From NCBI GenBank assembly GCA_964573185.1, contig CAZNIQ010000010.1, positions 1 through 5,664 of the forward strand: DNA of 5,664 bases, given 5' to 3'. Below the pieces are notes generated by a model that was given only the letters and a program-made list of their open reading frames with translations, was not told the origin of the DNA and searched no databases. Source of the stretch: Candidatus Woesearchaeota archaeon. GTDB lineage: Archaea > Nanobdellota > Nanobdellia > Nanobdellales > CAZNIQ01. Shown here in pieces: positions 1 through 5,664 of the stretch. A program made the position numbers and the translations under genes. The stretch's first letter is position 1. Every line of letters begins with the position of its first letter.

Positions 1-375
1 ACCCTGTATATTCTGAACTATTAAGGTATTTACATTTGCTTGATTAATATTTACTTGATCCATACTACCCTTAGCTTTGTTAAATTCAATATAGTTTGCT
101 TGTAAATAACTAACATTTGTAATGTTATAGTTATTTGCGTTAAGGTTTGAGGATAATTTTGAAACAAATAAGGAAGTAACTTTAAGAAAATCTACAGATA
201 AATTTTGAAAGGGAAAATACGTAATTATTTTACCATTTGCAAAATCAAATACGGGTTTCAATGTGTGATAATCTGTTATTATTTGGCTTATAGGTATCAT
301 TGGTAGGTTTTTGTTTAAAGAAAGAATGATACTGAGACCAAACAAGAATACACCAATAGCGATATATCTTTTCAT
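1..375 (-). CDS. Hypothetical signal-anchored/secreted protein; N-terminal 125 codons only, since the gene runs off the left edge. Absent from the supplied ORF track.
   Basis: ATG at 375-373 (cat on the + strand). I translated all 125 minus-strand codons down to position 1 and met no stop: MKRYIAIGVFLFGLSIILSLNKNLPMIPISQIITDYHTLKPVFDFANGKIITYFPFQNLSVDFLKVTSLFVSKLSSNLNANNYNITNVSYLQANYIEFNKAKGSMDQVNINQANVNTLIVQNIQG. Basic N-terminus (MKR) followed by about 17 hydrophobic residues, which suggests a signal peptide or anchor. Three N-x-S/T sequons (NLS, NIT, NVS). Asn-rich C-terminal part. No family recognised. Confidence 0.55.
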   Translation of the reverse strand, partial: MKRYIAIGVFLFGLSIILSLNKNLPMIPISQIITDYHTLKPVFDFANGKIITYFPFQNLSVDFLKVTSLFVSKLSSNLNANNYNITNVSYLQANYIEFNKAKGSMDQVNINQANVNTLIVQNIQG

Positions 376-398
376 AAAAGAACATTATAATTTGGAGG

Positions 399-406
399 GT
401 TTAAAT
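399..406 (-). promoter_or_regulatory. TATA-like box for the 375..1 gene; predicts a leaderless mRNA
   Basis: The minus strand reads ATTTAAAC at 406-399, which is -31..-24 relative to the A of the ATG at 375. That is the usual archaeal TATA-to-start spacing. No Shine-Dalgarno motif lies between it and the ATG. It abuts the candidate sRNA D box (409-406). Confidence 0.35.
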
Positions 407-456
407 CAGTTGCGGAAGTAATACATCATTAATCAGTCAGTGCCGGTTTCATCAAA
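403..456 (-). ncRNA. Candidate archaeal C/D box sRNA (2'-O-methylation guide), immediately 3' of tRNA-Val
   Basis: Minus strand read: box C UUGAUGA (455-449), 12-nt spacer AACCGGCACUGA (448-437), box D' CUGA (436-433), loop UUA (432-430), box C' AUGAUGU (429-423), 13-nt spacer AUUACUUCCGCAA (422-410), box D CUGA (409-406). It is 50 nt box to box. Box order and the 12/13-nt spacers match the canonical archaeal architecture. No terminal stem is evident. The D' assignment is ambiguous because CUGA is duplicated (440-433). Confidence 0.6.
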
Positions 457-528
457 TGGGGCCGCGGGGATTCGAACCCCGGACCTCCGCCTTGTAAGGG
501 CGGCGTCATGCCGCTAGACTACGGCCCC
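457..528 (-). tRNA. tRNA-Val (anticodon UAC), 72 nt, no intron, no encoded CCA
   Basis: Minus strand 528->457: GGGGCCG UA GUCU AGCGGCA UGAC G CCGCC CUUACAA GGCGG AGGUC CGGGG UUCGAAU CCCCG CGGCCCC A. It has a 7-bp all-Watson-Crick acceptor stem, a D arm with G18G19, and a 5-bp anticodon stem. The anticodon loop is CU-UAC-AA (U33, A37). The variable loop is 5 nt, the T arm carries a UUCGAAU loop, and the discriminator is A. The following bases are UUU, not CCA. 51 of 72 positions are G/C. Confidence 0.93.
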
Positions 529-568
529 AAGTAAAATTTATACTTCAACTAAGCTTAAAAATCTTATA
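529..568. promoter_or_regulatory. Bidirectional/interleaved core-promoter spacer for polB (+) and tRNA-Val (-)
   Basis: Only 40 bp separate tRNA position +1 (528) from the polB ATG (569). The + strand has AATTTATA at 535-542, which is -34..-27 from the polB ATG. The - strand has ATTTTTAA at 562-555, which is -34..-27 from tRNA G+1. No Shine-Dalgarno motif precedes the polB ATG. Confidence 0.4.
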
Positions 569-2998
569 ATGAAAGTCTTCGTACTTTCAATAGATTATGA
601 AAGAAAAGGTGATGAGTATCTCATAAGAATTTGGGGGAGAACTGAAGATGGCAAAAAGATTCTGATTTTAGATCATTATGACTGGTATATTTATATCATT
701 CCGAAAACTGATAAAAACAAAATTTATAATGAATTAAAAAAGATAAGATATTTTTATAGAATTGAAGAAGAAAGAAAAAAATATTTAGGGAAAGAATATG
801 ACGTGTTTAAATGTTATTTGAAACCAAAAGATTATGATGATGCAAAGAAGCTATTAGATCCTTTAAAGGAACAAGGATTAATTGAGAAAAAAGAAGTGGA
901 TATTAGTTATCATAGAAAATATATTGTAGATAAAAGATTGTATCCTTTGCATTTTTATAACTTCGAATTAGAACCTATTGGAAAATTATATGGTGTTGAT
1001 ACTTACAGACTAAAATCTTTTAAAGAGTCTAACGGTAAATATGAACTAAAAGTTTTGGCTTTTGATATTGAGGTTTTGACGAACAAAGCTTTTCCTGATC
1101 CCAAAAAAGATCCTGTAATCTCAATAGCTTTTTATTCTAAAGATTTTAAGAGAGTTATTACTTATAAAGAACCTGAAGAGAAAAAAGATTATTATGTTAT
1201 TGTTAAAAGCGAATACGAATTATTTAAGAAATTTGAGGAAACAATAAAAGAGTACGACCCAGATATTCTTGTAGGATATAATTCTAATAATTTTGATCTT
1301 TGGTATTTGTATGAAAGAGCAAAGGTTCTTAACTATAAATTTACTATCGGATGGGATAGGAAAGGATTCATTTATGCTAAAAAGGGGGAGGATAAGAAAT
1401 TTAGAATTACTGGAATACAGCATATAGATTTCTATGATTTCGTTGTTCATATCTTAGGAGGACAGTTACAAAGCACTACGTATTCTTTAGATGAAGTTGC
1501 TAAAGAACTTTTAGGAGAGGGAAAAATAGAAATATCATGGGAGGAACTTTACAAGATATGGACTTCTGGCAAAAACGTAGAAAAACTTTTAGAATATAAT
1601 TTAAAGGATGCAGAGTTAACATACAAGCTTTTTGAGAAATTCAAAACAATACTATTCGAATTAACAAGAATAGTAGGTCAGAATCTTGATGACGTAGCTC
1701 ATATGACTTATGGACAATTAGTAGAATGGTATTTGATTAGAAGATCTAGAGATTTCAATGAAATAGTACCTAATAGGCCTAAACAAGAGGAAGTACAAAG
1801 AAGAAAAGCTATCACTTATAAAGGTGCATACGTTTTTGAGCCAAAGCCGGGATTGTATACTAATGTTGTAGTCTACGATTTCAGATCTCTATATCCCTCT
1901 ATAATAATTTTGCATAATGTTTCTCCAGATACATTAAAATGTGAACATGAGGAATGCAAATCTAATGGTATTACTGTTGAAACTTCTATTGGAAAATGGT
2001 ATGTATGGTTCTGTACAAAGAGGATAGGTTTTATTCCCTCTGTTTTAAAAGAAATTTTTGAGGAAAGAGCGGAACTTAAAAGGAGATTGAAAACTTTGCC
2101 AAAAGACTCTGAAGAATATAGACTTTTAGATGCAAGGCAATATTCATTAAAGATACTTGCAAACGCAACTTATGGTTACATGGGCTTTCCTAACGCTAGA
2201 TGGTATTGCTTGGATTGTGCAGCGGCGATTACAGCTTGGGGAAGAAAATACATAAGTTTTGTTGCCGAAGAAGCTAAAAAGAGAGGATTTAAAATAATTT
2301 ATGGAGATACGGATAGTATTTTTATTCAAGTAAATAATAAAGAGGAAGCATTGAAATTTTTAGAATATATTAATTCAAAATTGAAAAAACCAATGGAATT
2401 AGAGCTGGAGGATTTTTACCCAAGAGGCATATTTGTTTCTAAGAGAACCGAACTTCTTGAAGGCGCAAAAAAGAAATATGCTCTAATAAATGAAAAAGGA
2501 GAAATAAAATTAAGAGGTTTTGAAACTGTTAGAAGAGATTGGGCAGAAATTGCAAAAGAAACACAGAGAAAAGTAATTGAGATTCTGTTGAAAGAAGGAG
2601 ATGTTGAGAAAGCTATCCGATATGTTCAAGAAGTTATAGATAATCTGAAGAAACATAAAGTTCCTGTAGAGAAATTGATTTTATATGAGCAATTAAGAAA
2701 ACCTTTGGAAGAATATAAAGTTGAAGCTCCACATGTAGTTGCTGCAAAGAAATTAAAGCAAAGAGGATTTCCAGTAGGGCAAGGAACTGTCGTTTCTTAT
2801 ATAATTTGTAAAGGAGGAGAGAGAATAAGAGATAAGGTAAGATTACCTGATGAGGTAAAACCGGAAGATTATGATCCAGAGTATTACATAGAGCACCAAG
2901 TTATTCCAGCAGTAGAAAAGATTTTTGAAGCTGTAGGTGTTCCTAAGGAAAGATTGTTATCTAAAGGGCAAAAAACTTTACTTTCCTTTTTCAAGTAA
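569..2998 (+). CDS. polB: Family B DNA polymerase (archaeal replicative PolB type), 809 aa, contiguous, no intein
   Basis: All signature motifs are present in order: Exo I FDIE (1061-1072), Exo II YNSNNFDLWYL (1277-1309), Exo III YNLKDAELTY (1595-1624). Pol motif A is DFRSLYPS (1877-1900), motif B is KILANATYG (2150-2176), and motif C is YGDTDS (2300-2317); KKKYA follows downstream. By eye the sequence is collinear with Thermococcales PolB, for example ARWYCLDCAAAITAWGRKY against Pfu ARWYCKECAESVTAWGRKY, and VRRDWAEIAKETQ against VRRDWSEIAKETQ. Confidence 0.96.
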   Translation: MKVFVLSIDYERKGDEYLIRIWGRTEDGKKILILDHYDWYIYIIPKTDKNKIYNELKKIRYFYRIEEERKKYLGKEYDVFKCYLKPKDYDDAKKLLDPLKEQGLIEKKEVDISYHRKYIVDKRLYPLHFYNFELEPIGKLYGVDTYRLKSFKESNGKYELKVLAFDIEVLTNKAFPDPKKDPVISIAFYSKDFKRVITYKEPEEKKDYYVIVKSEYELFKKFEETIKEYDPDILVGYNSNNFDLWYLYERAKVLNYKFTIGWDRKGFIYAKKGEDKKFRITGIQHIDFYDFVVHILGGQLQSTTYSLDEVAKELLGEGKIEISWEELYKIWTSGKNVEKLLEYNLKDAELTYKLFEKFKTILFELTRIVGQNLDDVAHMTYGQLVEWYLIRRSRDFNEIVPNRPKQEEVQRRKAITYKGAYVFEPKPGLYTNVVVYDFRSLYPSIIILHNVSPDTLKCEHEECKSNGITVETSIGKWYVWFCTKRIGFIPSVLKEIFEERAELKRRLKTLPKDSEEYRLLDARQYSLKILANATYGYMGFPNARWYCLDCAAAITAWGRKYISFVAEEAKKRGFKIIYGDTDSIFIQVNNKEEALKFLEYINSKLKKPMELELEDFYPRGIFVSKRTELLEGAKKKYALINEKGEIKLRGFETVRRDWAEIAKETQRKVIEILLKEGDVEKAIRYVQEVIDNLKKHKVPVEKLILYEQLRKPLEEYKVEAPHVVAAKKLKQRGFPVGQGTVVSYIICKGGERIRDKVRLPDEVKPEDYDPEYYIEHQVIPAVEKIFEAVGVPKERLLSKGQKTLLSFFK
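2970..2975 (-). terminator. Oligo-T (T6) candidate archaeal terminator for the ATPase operon, embedded in the polB 3' coding end
   Basis: After the ATPase stop codon the minus strand reads TAA-AG-TTTTTT-GCCCTTTAG. The T6 run begins 2 nt after the stop codon. T runs are common in this AT-rich sequence, so support is weak. Confidence 0.3.
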
Positions 2999-4759
2999 CT
3001 TGGCTAATTCCTCAGGAGCATTATAAAACATTTCAATATATTTTTCTATCTCTTTATAATTTCTTATATTGTTTTTAACTAAATATTCTATTACTTTTGC
3101 TCTAAAATTTAGATCCGCTATTAATTCTTCATCGGAATATCCTTTAAACTCTTTTATTTCTTCTAATATTTTAGATTTCAATGCTAGGAACTCATCTTTA
3201 GCGGGAACCCATCTAAAAGCTTCCCCATAAACTATATCATCCTTTGATCGATCATAACCGTAAATTTCTACAATTTGAGCTACTCTTCTAACGTAATAAT
3301 TTCCTATTTTTGTTCTAACTAAGAATACTATTGCATCAAGGTTCTCTAAAAGAACTTTAGGTAAATTGATTGGAGGAGAAATTAATCTATCTATGACAGC
3401 TTCTACTGAATCAGCATGAATAGTTCCTAGACCGGGATGTCCTGTAGCCATTGCTTGGAACAATACATAAGCTTCCTTTCCTCTCACTTCTCCAACTATT
3501 ATATAATCTGGTCTTTGTCTCAGGGCTGCTTTTAACAAATCTATCATTTCAACAGCACCGTAATTGTTTGACCCAAATCCGGGTCTTGCAACTAAAGGCA
3601 ACCAGTTTGGATGTGGGAGCTTTAATTCAGGAGTATCTTCTATAGAAACTATCTTCATTTCTGGTTTTATGAATAATGCTATAGAGTTTAGAAATGTAGT
3701 TTTTCCTGTAGCTGTTCCACCTGCAATCAAAATAGAATGTTGTGTTTCTATTAAAGCCCAAAGATACGCAAATATTTTTATATCAGCAGTTCCGAATTTA
3801 ATCAAATCTACAAATGTTAAAGGTTCCTTTGTGAACTTTCTTATAGTAAAATTAGAACCTCTCCTAGCAATATCCTTTCCATATGTTATCTGAACTCTAG
3901 AACCATCTGGTAATGTACCATCTAATAATGGTTGTGCAACGGAAATTACTCTTCCAGTTTTTTGAGCAAGCTTCATAACAAAAGAATCTAATTCTTCTTC
4001 AGTTTCGAATACAATATTTGTCTGAATCTCCCCTATAGCAGGATGTCTATGAAATACGAATATCGGAATTCCAACACCATCACAAGAGATATCTTCAATA
4101 AAAGGATCATGCATTAAGGGTTCTATTTTACCTAAACCGATAGTGTCTCTAAAAATATAATACTTTATCTCAACTTCCCTATCTTTAGGATATTTTACCT
4201 TTAAGAACTTCCAAATTTCATTAATTTTTTTGTCAATGTAATCATAAGCTTCTTTTATATTTTTAATAGCATTAAAATCTATATCTAATTTATCTTCAAG
4301 CATTTCAACGGTTTTTTCTATAATTTCCTTATCTTTCCCATTTATTGGTGGCTCGTGGACAAAGTAGATCAATCTTTTCTTTTCTGGAACATAATGAATA
4401 TCTGCATAAGCTAATACTTTTGTTTTGCCATTTATTTTAGCTATAATTAAAGGATAAATTAGCTTTATATTTGCAGGCTTTCGCTCTATATATGTAAAGG
4501 TTTTAATTTTCTCTACTTTTGTTTCTTTAAATATATAGGACAGTTCAATACCTTTTGCACTAGATTTCTTTGATACTTTTTCTTGCTGATCTATAGGGTA
4601 AGGATAGGAAGTAACGGGAACGAATACTGGTCTGGAGGGGTGAACATATTCTTCAATAATTTTAATTGTAGGAGCTTCAAACTCCTCATATTTCTTTCTA
4701 AGCATTTCCCTTTGTGCGAGAAATTTCACCGCTTTCCTAATGATTTTCCTCAAACTCAT
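2978..4759 (-). CDS. ArlI/FlaI-family archaeal type IV filament (archaellum/pilus) assembly ATPase; GspE/VirB11 secretion-ATPase superfamily; 593 aa
   Basis: Walker A is AGGTATGKTT (GGTATGKTT at 3695-3721). Walker B/Asp box is RPDYIIVGEVRG (DYIIVGE at 3488-3508). The His box is GHPGLGTIHA. Archaeal FlaI-type N-terminal motifs are present: YFVHEPP, IEDISCDG and NFTIRKF (FTIRKF at 3833-3850). The FlaI-like C-terminal helical tail is also present (...YSDEELIADLNFRAKVIEYLVKNNIRNYKEIEKYIEMFYNAPEEL). The ATG overlaps the upstream stop codon as ATGA (4756-4759). Confidence 0.9.
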   Translation of the reverse strand: MSLRKIIRKAVKFLAQREMLRKKYEEFEAPTIKIIEEYVHPSRPVFVPVTSYPYPIDQQEKVSKKSSAKGIELSYIFKETKVEKIKTFTYIERKPANIKLIYPLIIAKINGKTKVLAYADIHYVPEKKRLIYFVHEPPINGKDKEIIEKTVEMLEDKLDIDFNAIKNIKEAYDYIDKKINEIWKFLKVKYPKDREVEIKYYIFRDTIGLGKIEPLMHDPFIEDISCDGVGIPIFVFHRHPAIGEIQTNIVFETEEELDSFVMKLAQKTGRVISVAQPLLDGTLPDGSRVQITYGKDIARRGSNFTIRKFTKEPLTFVDLIKFGTADIKIFAYLWALIETQHSILIAGGTATGKTTFLNSIALFIKPEMKIVSIEDTPELKLPHPNWLPLVARPGFGSNNYGAVEMIDLLKAALRQRPDYIIVGEVRGKEAYVLFQAMATGHPGLGTIHADSVEAVIDRLISPPINLPKVLLENLDAIVFLVRTKIGNYYVRRVAQIVEIYGYDRSKDDIVYGEAFRWVPAKDEFLALKSKILEEIKEFKGYSDEELIADLNFRAKVIEYLVKNNIRNYKEIEKYIEMFYNAPEELAKLLEKGK

Positions 4760-5097
4760 ATTATAATTATTTTATTTCCTTCTCTTTTAATAGTTATCCT
4801 ATCTGAAACAGTAACCAAAACTTTTGCATTTAAAGGATAAACTTCTGAAAGAATTAAAGAATCGTTATAAAAAAGAAGTTTTTCTGGGAATGTTAACGTT
4901 ATTGAAACATTAGATAAATTTGCTATAGTGATTGCGTTTTGAATTACATAAAGATACATTATCTCTTTTTCTTTTGTGATGTTAGAAAGTACCTTTTGAT
5001 AGGAATTGTAGATTTGATAATAGAAGAAAAGAAAAAGAGATATAACGAAAAATGTGTGAAAAAGCTTTTCTATATATTCTGCTTGGCTACGAAACAC
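4756..5097 (-). CDS. Small pilin-like / ArlF-ArlG-like protein (113 aa) with a class III-signal-like N-terminus, one hydrophobic helix and a beta-rich ectodomain
   Basis: The GTG start at 5097 is immediately preceded by an in-frame TAA (5100-5098), so this is the only start that keeps the N-terminal helix; the next Met is residue 47. The N-terminus is MFRS-QAEYIEKLFHTFFVISLFLFFYY. There are four N-x-S/T sequons (NIT, NLS, NVS, NDS). The stop codon overlaps the ATPase ATG. The N-terminal motif is shared with the upstream gene. Confidence 0.6.
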   Translation of the reverse strand: MFRSQAEYIEKLFHTFFVISLFLFFYYQIYNSYQKVLSNITKEKEIMYLYVIQNAITIANLSNVSITLTFPEKLLFYNDSLILSEVYPLNAKVLVTVSDRITIKREGNKIIII

Positions 5098-5659
5098 TTA
5101 TTCTTAATTTGTAAATAGTGAATAAAGTGCAATTAGGATAGCTTCCTTTCCTCTCATCTACTTTTTCAATAATTAGTTTTCCTTTCAATGGAAGTGTTGG
5201 TAATTCTTCGAACTCAAAAGTATAACATCTTCCAGTTATAGGATCCTTATGGATTCTACAAAATATTTCATAAATTATTTGTGTGTTCGTTGTTGATAAG
5301 TTTACAACGCAAGTAGGTTCCGATATCGCTATTGGTGAGTAAATTAGAATATTCAAAGGAATATCCTTAAGGTTTGGAGAGTATATTACATTTTGCGGAA
5401 CATTGTAAGTTACGGTAATGATATTGTTTGAAATAGAAATGTATGCATTATAATTTACATCAAAATCTATTTTATTTTCATATCTAAGTTTATCTAAAGA
5501 GTTTGCAAAATCTATCACAAATTTTTCTAATGAATCTACTTCTGATTTAATTTTATTTTTAGTTAATAATGGTTGTCCCCAAAGAATGGCAGCAGTAGCT
5601 AAAGAAATAACAACACCAGCTAAAAGAATGTAAGAAAGGTAAGAGGCTTGAAGCTTCAA
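5087..5659 (-). CDS. Pilin-like / ArlF-ArlG-like protein (190 aa as tracked) with a class III-signal-like N-terminus. The start is TTG, and the frame stays open to the window edge, so the 5' end may be incomplete.
   Basis: The codon at 5659-5657 is TTG, not ATG. The in-frame codon upstream (5662-5660) is ACC, and no stop occurs before the window ends at 5664. The N-terminus is (M)KL-QASYLSYILLAGVVISLATAAILW, followed by a soluble domain with 4 Cys and 2 sequons (NLS, NCT). Its TAG stop (5087-5089) lies 11 nt inside the next gene. Confidence 0.6.
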   Translation of the reverse strand: MKLQASYLSYILLAGVVISLATAAILWGQPLLTKNKIKSEVDSLEKFVIDFANSLDKLRYENKIDFDVNYNAYISISNNIITVTYNVPQNVIYSPNLKDIPLNILIYSPIAISEPTCVVNLSTTNTQIIYEIFCRIHKDPITGRCYTFEFEELPTLPLKGKLIIEKVDERKGSYPNCTLFTIYKLRISVS

Positions 5660-5664
5660 GGTCT

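Follow-up and report, generated by a model that had tools for sequence, protein, structure and literature searches.

The window analysed here, a stretch of 5,664 nucleotides (positions 1 to 5,664 of the forward strand of contig CAZNIQ010000010.1 from a Candidatus Woesearchaeota archaeon), carries on its minus strand two adjacent genes for small proteins of 190 amino acids (aa; 5087..5659) and 113 aa (4756..5097), whose N-termini had been likened to those of prepilins in a preliminary description made from the DNA letters. We conclude, with a probability of about 0.8, that these genes encode two distinct minor-pilin-like accessory proteins of a type IV filament operon, and that the archaeon is DPANN-related, AT-rich and probably thermophilic. 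Proteins of this kind are known, and the cleavage motif is slightly unusual, the one unusual point being the serine or leucine residue at position −1, directly before the glutamine residue taken as +1.

The window is nearly the whole of a 6.5-kb ENA contig, and the open reading frame (ORF) of the 190-aa protein is open at its edge. The missing upstream DNA was obtained from two records, an identical 3.5-kb JGI contig (L004) and a 43-kb NCBI contig of a metagenome-assembled genome (MAG; L002), in which the orthologue of the 190-aa protein (P0002) is 54% identical. Read across these records, the operon runs from a coiled-coil protein gene through a major pilin gene, the 190-aa gene and the 113-aa gene to an ArlI/PilB-type ATPase gene. 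The three minus-strand genes of the window are tightly packed and overlap at their ends. The 190-aa gene begins with a TTG (the protein begins MKLQASYLSYILLAGVVISLATAAILWGQPLL) that overlaps the TGA stop of the preceding pilin gene (cTTGA); the 113-aa gene begins with a GTG (the protein begins MFRSQAEYIEKLFHTFFVISLFLFFYY) and shares 11 nt with the end of the 190-aa gene, and its own TGA stop overlaps the ATG with which the ATPase gene starts (ATGA). In both L004 and L002, an in-frame TAG lies two codons 5′ of the TTG and a TAA lies directly 5′ of the GTG. Thus the hydrophobic helices stand at the true N-termini, behind the leaders MKL and MFRS. A start of the 190-aa ORF far upstream, which according to the preliminary description would make its helix internal, is ruled out by the in-frame stop.

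In the public annotations of the ENA and JGI contigs, the 113-aa gene is started at an internal ATG, giving a protein of 67 aa (4756..4959, minus strand), as would be expected if one or both ORFs were spurious or mis-started. However, L002 has Leu at the position of the internal Met and lacks another ATG, the first 46 residues are conserved as well as the remainder, the GTG is directly preceded by a stop in both lineages, and the N-terminal motif agrees with that of the corresponding family (FamB, see below) at 25 other loci. We consider a spurious or wrongly started ORF to be of almost vanishing probability. Judging from its conservation, the GTG-started 113-aa form is the real gene and the 67-aa call is mis-started.

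In the 190-aa protein the leader M-K-L (5651..5659), with Lys at −2 and Leu at −1, is followed by Gln at +1 and a hydrophobic helix spanning Gln4–Trp27 (5579..5650), as delimited by Kyte–Doolittle hydrophobicity and AlphaFold2. In the 113-aa protein the leader M-F-R-S (5086..5097), with Arg at −2 and Ser at −1, is followed by Gln at +1, the conserved Glu10 (+6 from the Gln) and a Phe-rich hydrophobic helix (5008..5085; alignment and AlphaFold2). The highest-scoring 19-residue Kyte–Doolittle windows were residues 8–26 (mean 2.32) and residues 12–30 (mean 1.54) respectively. Both proteins thus have the class III feature of a short basic leader at the true N-terminus passing directly into a hydrophobic helix.

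The N-terminal sequences quoted in the preliminary description were correct, and its view of them as pilin-like (class III signal peptide-like) is backed by the bounded starts, the pilin and ATPase neighbours, the M-K-[G/A]-Q pattern of the family and the AlphaFold2 architecture. The longer motif that it proposed held in part. The core [KR]-x-Q-A and the hydrophobic helix are kept in the L002 orthologues, MKSQASY and MLRSQAEL (leaders MKS and MLRS, with Ser at −1 in both), and in a third lineage, L165 (1..1001; MKSQTTYLSYILL), where the two proteins read MKSQTTY and ..SKGQALFLEK, but the Tyr at +4 and the V-I-S-L are not kept: the L002 pair has VIGL versus VITA, and Leu in place of Tyr. Of the 20 positions that follow [KR]xQA, five are identical in the window pair (shuffle P 0.007) and two in the orthologue pair (P 0.44).

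Each protein was found to belong to a separate family that crosses phyla, and we named these FamA (190 aa) and FamB (113 aa). When the window 190-aa protein and its 193-aa L002 orthologue were aligned as a pair by hhalign with 20 positional FamA orthologues from DPANN loci, the probability was 97.2% (E 4.5e-11, 150 columns), and a hidden Markov model (HMM) built from the DPANN FamA sequences alone matched the L002 orthologue with an E-value of 1.7e-7. When 1.84 billion representatives were searched with a FamA profile of 13 sequences, at least 321 clusters (at 50% identity) were retrieved at E≤0.001, 121 of them at E≤1e-10, with the window protein scoring 177 bits; a word-indexed homology search with the 190-aa protein gave one orthologue only. 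The FamA N-terminus is uniform, M-K-[G/A]-Q-x3-[IV]-[ST]-x-[VI]-L-[IL]-T-G-I...A-Y-x-W-G-x-P-L-I-E-K, and the window protein fits this pattern (...AAILWGQPLLTKNK). Trp27 and Gly28 are invariant in the FamA alignment (A2), and the W-G-x-P motif is present in nearly all of 148 representatives; in the window it reads W27-G-Q-P-L-L (5564..5581, signature W-G-x-P-[LIM]-[LI] in the family alignment) and marks the end of the membrane helix.

The residues around the predicted cleavage site were then compared across FamA. Gln occupies +1 in 119 of the 148 representatives, and among the 143 that could be parsed the preceding residue is Gly in 70 and Ala in 53 (123 together), with true K-S-Q, K-L-Q, K-V-Q and K-Y-Q variants in a handful of representatives. 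The Leu and Ser of the window proteins do depart from this Gly/Ala norm, as the preliminary description had said. Ser or Leu at −1 is, in the FamA sequences compared, a minority yet recurrent state. In an unrelated lineage (L168 4001..5684), for example, the FamA protein P0049 reads K-K-L-Q, and its gene lies directly 5′ of those for a canonical K-G-Q FamB and an ATPase. The leader was three residues long in 57 of the 143 parsed representatives, four in 25 and five in 19, and leaders as short as three residues are processed by PibD (review PMC10117864, citing Ng et al. 2009). Since three residues is the commonest FamA leader length and has this precedent, short leaders are the rule, and the prepeptides of three to four residues are not the oddity that they had been taken for.

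FamA relatives also matched the first ~65–70 positions of the Pfam family DUF7289 (PF23960), two of ten over the gathering cutoff of 27 bits (28.8 and 29.1) and five below it. The window 190-aa protein itself had no DUF7289 match at E≤1, and is linked to the matching relatives through the profile search. Four Cys residues in its head (117, 134, 145 and 177) are kept in L002 (119, 136, 147 and 180) and are absent from the DPANN relatives, and could account for two disulfides of the head that are specific to this lineage.

For FamB the homology was less strong. The window 113-aa protein paired with its 115-aa L002 orthologue aligned end to end with 25 positional FamB orthologues from DPANN loci at an hhalign probability of 64% (E 6.5e-5, 111 columns), and FamB was the best of the five families tested against this pair. 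Addition of a bridging partial FamB sequence from L165 (MSHLSKGQALFLEKIL...YYFYQ...), which joins the window RSQAEYIEKLF... to the canonical K-G-Q, raised the hhalign probability to 84.5% (E 6.9e-6, 110 columns). The window protein keeps all of the invariant or near-invariant columns of a 19-sequence alignment (A3), namely Gln5, Glu10, Pro71, Tyr77 and Ile103, with Gln5 and Glu10 conserved in ≥90%. Pro71 and Tyr77 are the invariant residues of the head motif (I/F)-P-x-x-(I/L)-x-x-Y, which in the window reads F-P-E-K-L-L-F-Y (4867..4890, minus strand). The cleavage motif in the 25 DPANN FamB sequences was KGQ in 19 and KAQ in five. Three FamB relatives gave matches to Pfam DUF7266 (PF23928) of 16.7–20.5 bits (E 4e-4 to 6e-3, over 70–100 residues) against a cutoff of 27.6, and the window 113-aa protein itself gave none at E≤1. 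A word-indexed homology search with the 113-aa protein returned just the 100%-identical 67-aa call of the same gene.

The two proteins had been described as paralogues. They are adjacent in the genome, have K/R-x-Q-A in common and share the five identities after the motif given above, and at the family level FamA and FamB aligned at an hhalign probability of 76% (E 2.3e-5) over 78 mostly N-terminal columns, all of which could point to a recent tandem duplication of one pilin gene. However, BLASTP between the 190-aa and 113-aa proteins gave E-values of 0.28–0.52, and hhalign of the two orthologue pairs against each other gave a probability of 0.9% (E 0.061) over 21 N-terminal columns only, so that no similarity was detected beyond the N-terminal segment; the surplus of identities disappeared in the orthologue pair. 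Moreover, each protein matches its own cross-phylum family, with FamA nearer to the major pilins (hhalign 93.5%) and FamB nearer to a downstream family of ~150 aa, named D1 (97%). The family, BLASTP and hhalign evidence thus largely refutes a recent duplication, which we regard as very improbable. As far as the sequences go, the window proteins are orthologues of two different old families; these, the major pilins and D1 are all diverged members of one pilin-like superfamily.

AlphaFold2 modelled the 190-aa protein, from a 13-sequence alignment, with a helix at residues 3–57 followed by seven strands [mean predicted local distance difference test (pLDDT) score 74.8, predicted template modelling (pTM) score 0.66]. 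A combined FamA and FamB profile search returned FamA members only, so the 113-aa model was made from the single sequence; it had a helix at residues 2–62 followed by a small sheet of five strands (mean pLDDT 76.8, with 90–97 over residues 1–30). Both models, at moderate confidence, have the lollipop layout of pilins, a long N-terminal helix carrying a β-sheet head. Both heads contain N-x-S/T sequons and the 190-aa head the four Cys residues, which is consistent with extracellular heads.

The gene neighbourhood pointed to a filament system. The window ends in the last codons (R-P-stop; 5656..5664, minus strand) of the major pilin/archaellin-like gene, the remainder of which lies outside it, in L004, where the overlap is identical. 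This gene (L004 1409..1897) encodes a protein of 162 aa, MKGITPIIAVILLLLMTV...LRP*, with the N-terminus MKG|ITPIIAVILLLLMTV... (start MKG|ITPIIAV). The protein scored 23.7 bits against the NCBIfam model arch_flag_Nterm (cutoff 20) and 26.9 bits against Pfam Arch_flagellin, below the cutoff of 29.5, and had a weak match to NCBIfam ArlF (24.5 bits against a cutoff of 110). This canonical archaeal pilin retains M-K-G, whereas Gly and Ala are missing at −1 from the two accessory proteins. At the other end, the last gene of the operon (2978..4759, minus strand) encodes the ArlI/PilB-type secretion ATPase of 593 aa (Pfam T2SSE, E 1.7e-36), for which the best-scoring NCBIfam model was FlaI/ArlI at 442 bits, under the cutoff of 550, with BasE at 231 bits.

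Genome and metagenome scans with the ATPase gave nearest relatives of 50–54% identity in Aenigmatarchaeota and Micrarchaeota MAGs and of 46% in Bathyarchaeia, and nothing above 54% except the identical contig. The Bathyarchaeia relatives lie in a different, unrelated upstream context (an ECF transporter) and were uninformative, whereas a common synteny was found at ~30 Aenigmatarchaeota, Micrarchaeota and metagenome loci: a thermosome gene (at some loci), the coiled-coil protein, one to three pilins (MKGIS...), a ~200-aa K-G-Q protein, a ~145-aa K-G-Q protein and the ATPase, followed 3′ by two split ArlJ-like platform genes and two more pilin-like genes. Unlike these DPANN relatives, the window lineage has no ArlJ/TadC platform genes 3′ of the ATPase. 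A KaiC-like ArlH was absent from the window, from L002 and from the DPANN loci. When the window proteins and their FamA and FamB relatives were scanned with the NCBIfam models, no ArlF or ArlG match appeared at E≤1. For want of ArlH and of an ArlF/ArlG match, we reject an archaellum operon.

On these grounds we propose that both proteins would be inserted N-in/C-out through the hydrophobic helix, and that in the majority of family members the leader would be cut off ahead of the Gln by a class III signal peptidase. The ATPase, together with a platform protein, would then install both, at low copy number, within the filament of the upstream pilin or beneath it, as a priming or tip complex or a base complex. 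The helix Glu of FamB (+6) may pair with the neighbouring N-terminus in the manner of Glu5 of bacterial pilins, and FamA lacks such a residue. In the window lineage, −1 has drifted to Ser or Leu, so that processing may be inefficient or lost, or else the peptidase may be tolerant. Additional operon-encoded pilin-like proteins have been read as minor pilins before, and a mode of action like the one outlined here has been put forward for minor pilins in archaea and bacteria (Makarova et al. 2016, PMC4858521).

Several results weigh against the assignment as minor-pilin-like proteins. In place of Gly or Ala, the window proteins have Leu (190 aa) and Ser (113 aa) at −1, and changes of the Gly at −1 in a Methanococcus archaellin led to no or poor cleavage (PMC10117864). 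The window proteins matched no Pfam or NCBIfam model beyond noise. Foldseek searches of the two models against the PDB gave best E-values of 0.29 and 1.9 without a pilin or archaellin match, and the FamA profile matched designed helical repeats only among the PDB sequences; therefore neither head fold could be linked to a solved structure of a pilin, archaellin, ArlF or ArlG. The homology support for FamB is moderate, and its structural model was built from a single sequence. Finally, no prepilin peptidase or platform gene was found within the 6.5-kb and 20-kb contexts; two unannotated membrane proteins of L002 checked as candidates for the peptidase, ORFs of 206 aa and 130 aa, lack a GxGD-type motif.

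The accessory proteins of the sparsely sampled window lineage (K-L-Q and K-S-Q in FamA, R-S-Q in FamB) could have lost the Gly/Ala determinant of cleavage and either work unprocessed as permanent anchors or be served by a peptidase that accepts Ser or Leu, a proposal that we put forward tentatively and rate as possible. In its unprocessed version, the proteins would be an evolutionary intermediate between minor pilins and anchors of the ArlF/ArlG type. The occurrence of Leu, Val, Tyr and Ser at −1 in other FamA proteins encoded beside a canonical FamB hints that FamA may generally not need cleavage.

An alternative explanation is that the two proteins are not filament subunits at all but uncleaved bitopic anchors or aligners, ArlF/ArlG-like stator parts or analogues of PilN/PilO, in which the pilin-like helix was kept only for membrane anchoring. 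The Leu and Ser at −1 in the window lineage would fit this, as would the several unrelated FamA proteins without Gly or Ala there (such as the K-K-L-Q of P0049 next to a K-G-Q FamB), and the site between the filament and ATPase genes is that of arlG and arlF, with an ATPase that scores best against ArlI. However, neither NCBIfam ArlF nor any ArlG-type model was matched, none of the operons has an ArlH gene, the cleavable K-[G/A]-Q is the norm of the families, and FamB retains the helix Glu typical of assembled pilins. We therefore judge this explanation unlikely, and prefer accessory proteins of the minor-pilin kind.

Besides the two genes and the ATPase, the operon is opened by a conserved coiled-coil protein of ~170–200 aa (168 aa in L004, 906..1412; L002 9016..9537; both outside the window), encoded 5′ of the pilin gene. 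It has the N-terminal motif EYE[LV][VI]P[LM]xP[IL][RQ][KR]LE and, in both lineage copies examined (L004 and L002), a Pro-rich C-terminus (PPVPPKPLLPPPP), and it had no match in Pfam or NCBIfam. Possibly it corresponds to the clade 4F coiled-coil component noted by Makarova et al. A thermosome gene lies directly 5′ of the pilus operon in the window lineage (L002 7323..8960) and at many Aenigmatarchaeota loci, and this synteny, present in L006, L009–L013, L015 and L016, is unexpectedly well kept.

On the other side of the ATPase gene, the window contains a family B DNA polymerase (PolB) gene (569..2998, plus strand; ORF and Pfam scan). The two genes are convergent, and their 3′ ends overlap by 21 nt (2978..2998), and by 42 nt in L002 (12680..12721). 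A tRNA-Val gene (anticodon TAC) is located at 456..529 (minus strand) and is about two-thirds G+C by eye, compared with ~30% for the window; a G+C-rich tRNA in such an AT-rich window suggests a (hyper)thermophilic source organism. Beyond the tRNA, an ORF of 394 aa (1..375, minus strand; L001 5290..6471), divergent from PolB and without a Pfam match at E≤0.01, runs off the low end of the window.

Type IV filaments are regarded as the chief organelles of attachment in DPANN-like archaea, and their accessory pilin-like proteins are unnamed and unstudied. The analysis defines two families of these, FamA with the signature K-[GA]-Q...W-G-x-P-L-I-x-K and FamB with the signature K-[GA]-Q-x4-E...I-P-x2-I-x-G-x2-Y, places the two orphan ORFs of the window in them and corrects one start so that a 67-aa call becomes a 113-aa protein. 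The natural variants at −1 (Gly, Ala, Ser and Leu) provide a ready series for probing the specificity of archaeal class III signal peptidases. Beyond the families, the start correction and the −1 series, the operon content is ordinary.

The two families were compared with known systems. Their likeness to DUF7289 and DUF7266, archaeal families of unassigned function, is limited to the N-terminal third of FamA for DUF7289 and to matches that are all sub-threshold for DUF7266. As with ArlF and ArlG, there are two small proteins, each with a hydrophobic helix at the N-terminus, and their genes lie between a filament gene and an ArlI-like ATPase gene. The two families differ from these in that the family norm has a cleavable class III motif and that the ATPase is under the ArlI equivalog cutoff; no HMM matched them to either protein, so membership of ArlF/ArlG, which had been suggested, was not supported.

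The preliminary description had also suggested the DUF361/EppA type of pilin. Indeed, like the Epd pilins of Methanococcus maripaludis (DUF361/Class_IIIsignal, EppA substrates), the window proteins have Gln at +1 (Gln4 and Gln5) and Lys or Arg at −2. The FamA/FamB norm shares the KGQ/RAQ sites, at which the Epd pilins of Methanococcus are cut ahead of the Gln (PMC4371748), and several different pilin-like genes are present per operon in both cases. However, the window proteins and 20 relatives gave no PF04021 (DUF361) match at E≤1. The DUF361 motif Q-x-S-x-E-x-x-x-L is not present either: the 190-aa protein has Q-A-S without the Glu, and in the 113-aa protein Glu stands at +3 and +6 but not at +5. 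FamB has its acidic residue at +6 and FamA has none, in contrast with the Q-x-S-x-E of Epd. The window ATPase, moreover, is ArlI-like and not of the deep-branching Epd clade. Membership of this type was not supported.

The bacterial minor pilins and pseudopilins (GspH–K and PilV/W/X/FimU) likewise form a low-abundance pilin-like set encoded with the machinery, in which one member lacks the helix Glu (FamA here, as with GspK). No sequence or fold match links the two sets, the leader here is of the archaeal type (Lys/Arg at −2, Gln at +1), and a priming role would be by analogy.

The archaeal minor pilins of clade 4A/System 1 (PMC4858521; bioRxiv 10.64898/2026.04.22.720090) differ from the window lineage in its Ser or Leu at −1 and its lack of adjacent platform genes. 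Like the window proteins, they are small, with a short basic leader, a hydrophobic helix and a β-rich head, and are encoded between the major pilin and the ATPase, and the relatives of the window proteins have the two platform genes and the pilin-like genes 3′. System 1 and subsystem 4A loci of DPANN archaea have been described as having two platform genes with accessory genes 3′ (Sivabalasarma & Albers 2026, bioRxiv 10.64898/2026.04.22.720090), and the DPANN loci found in the present study fit that description.

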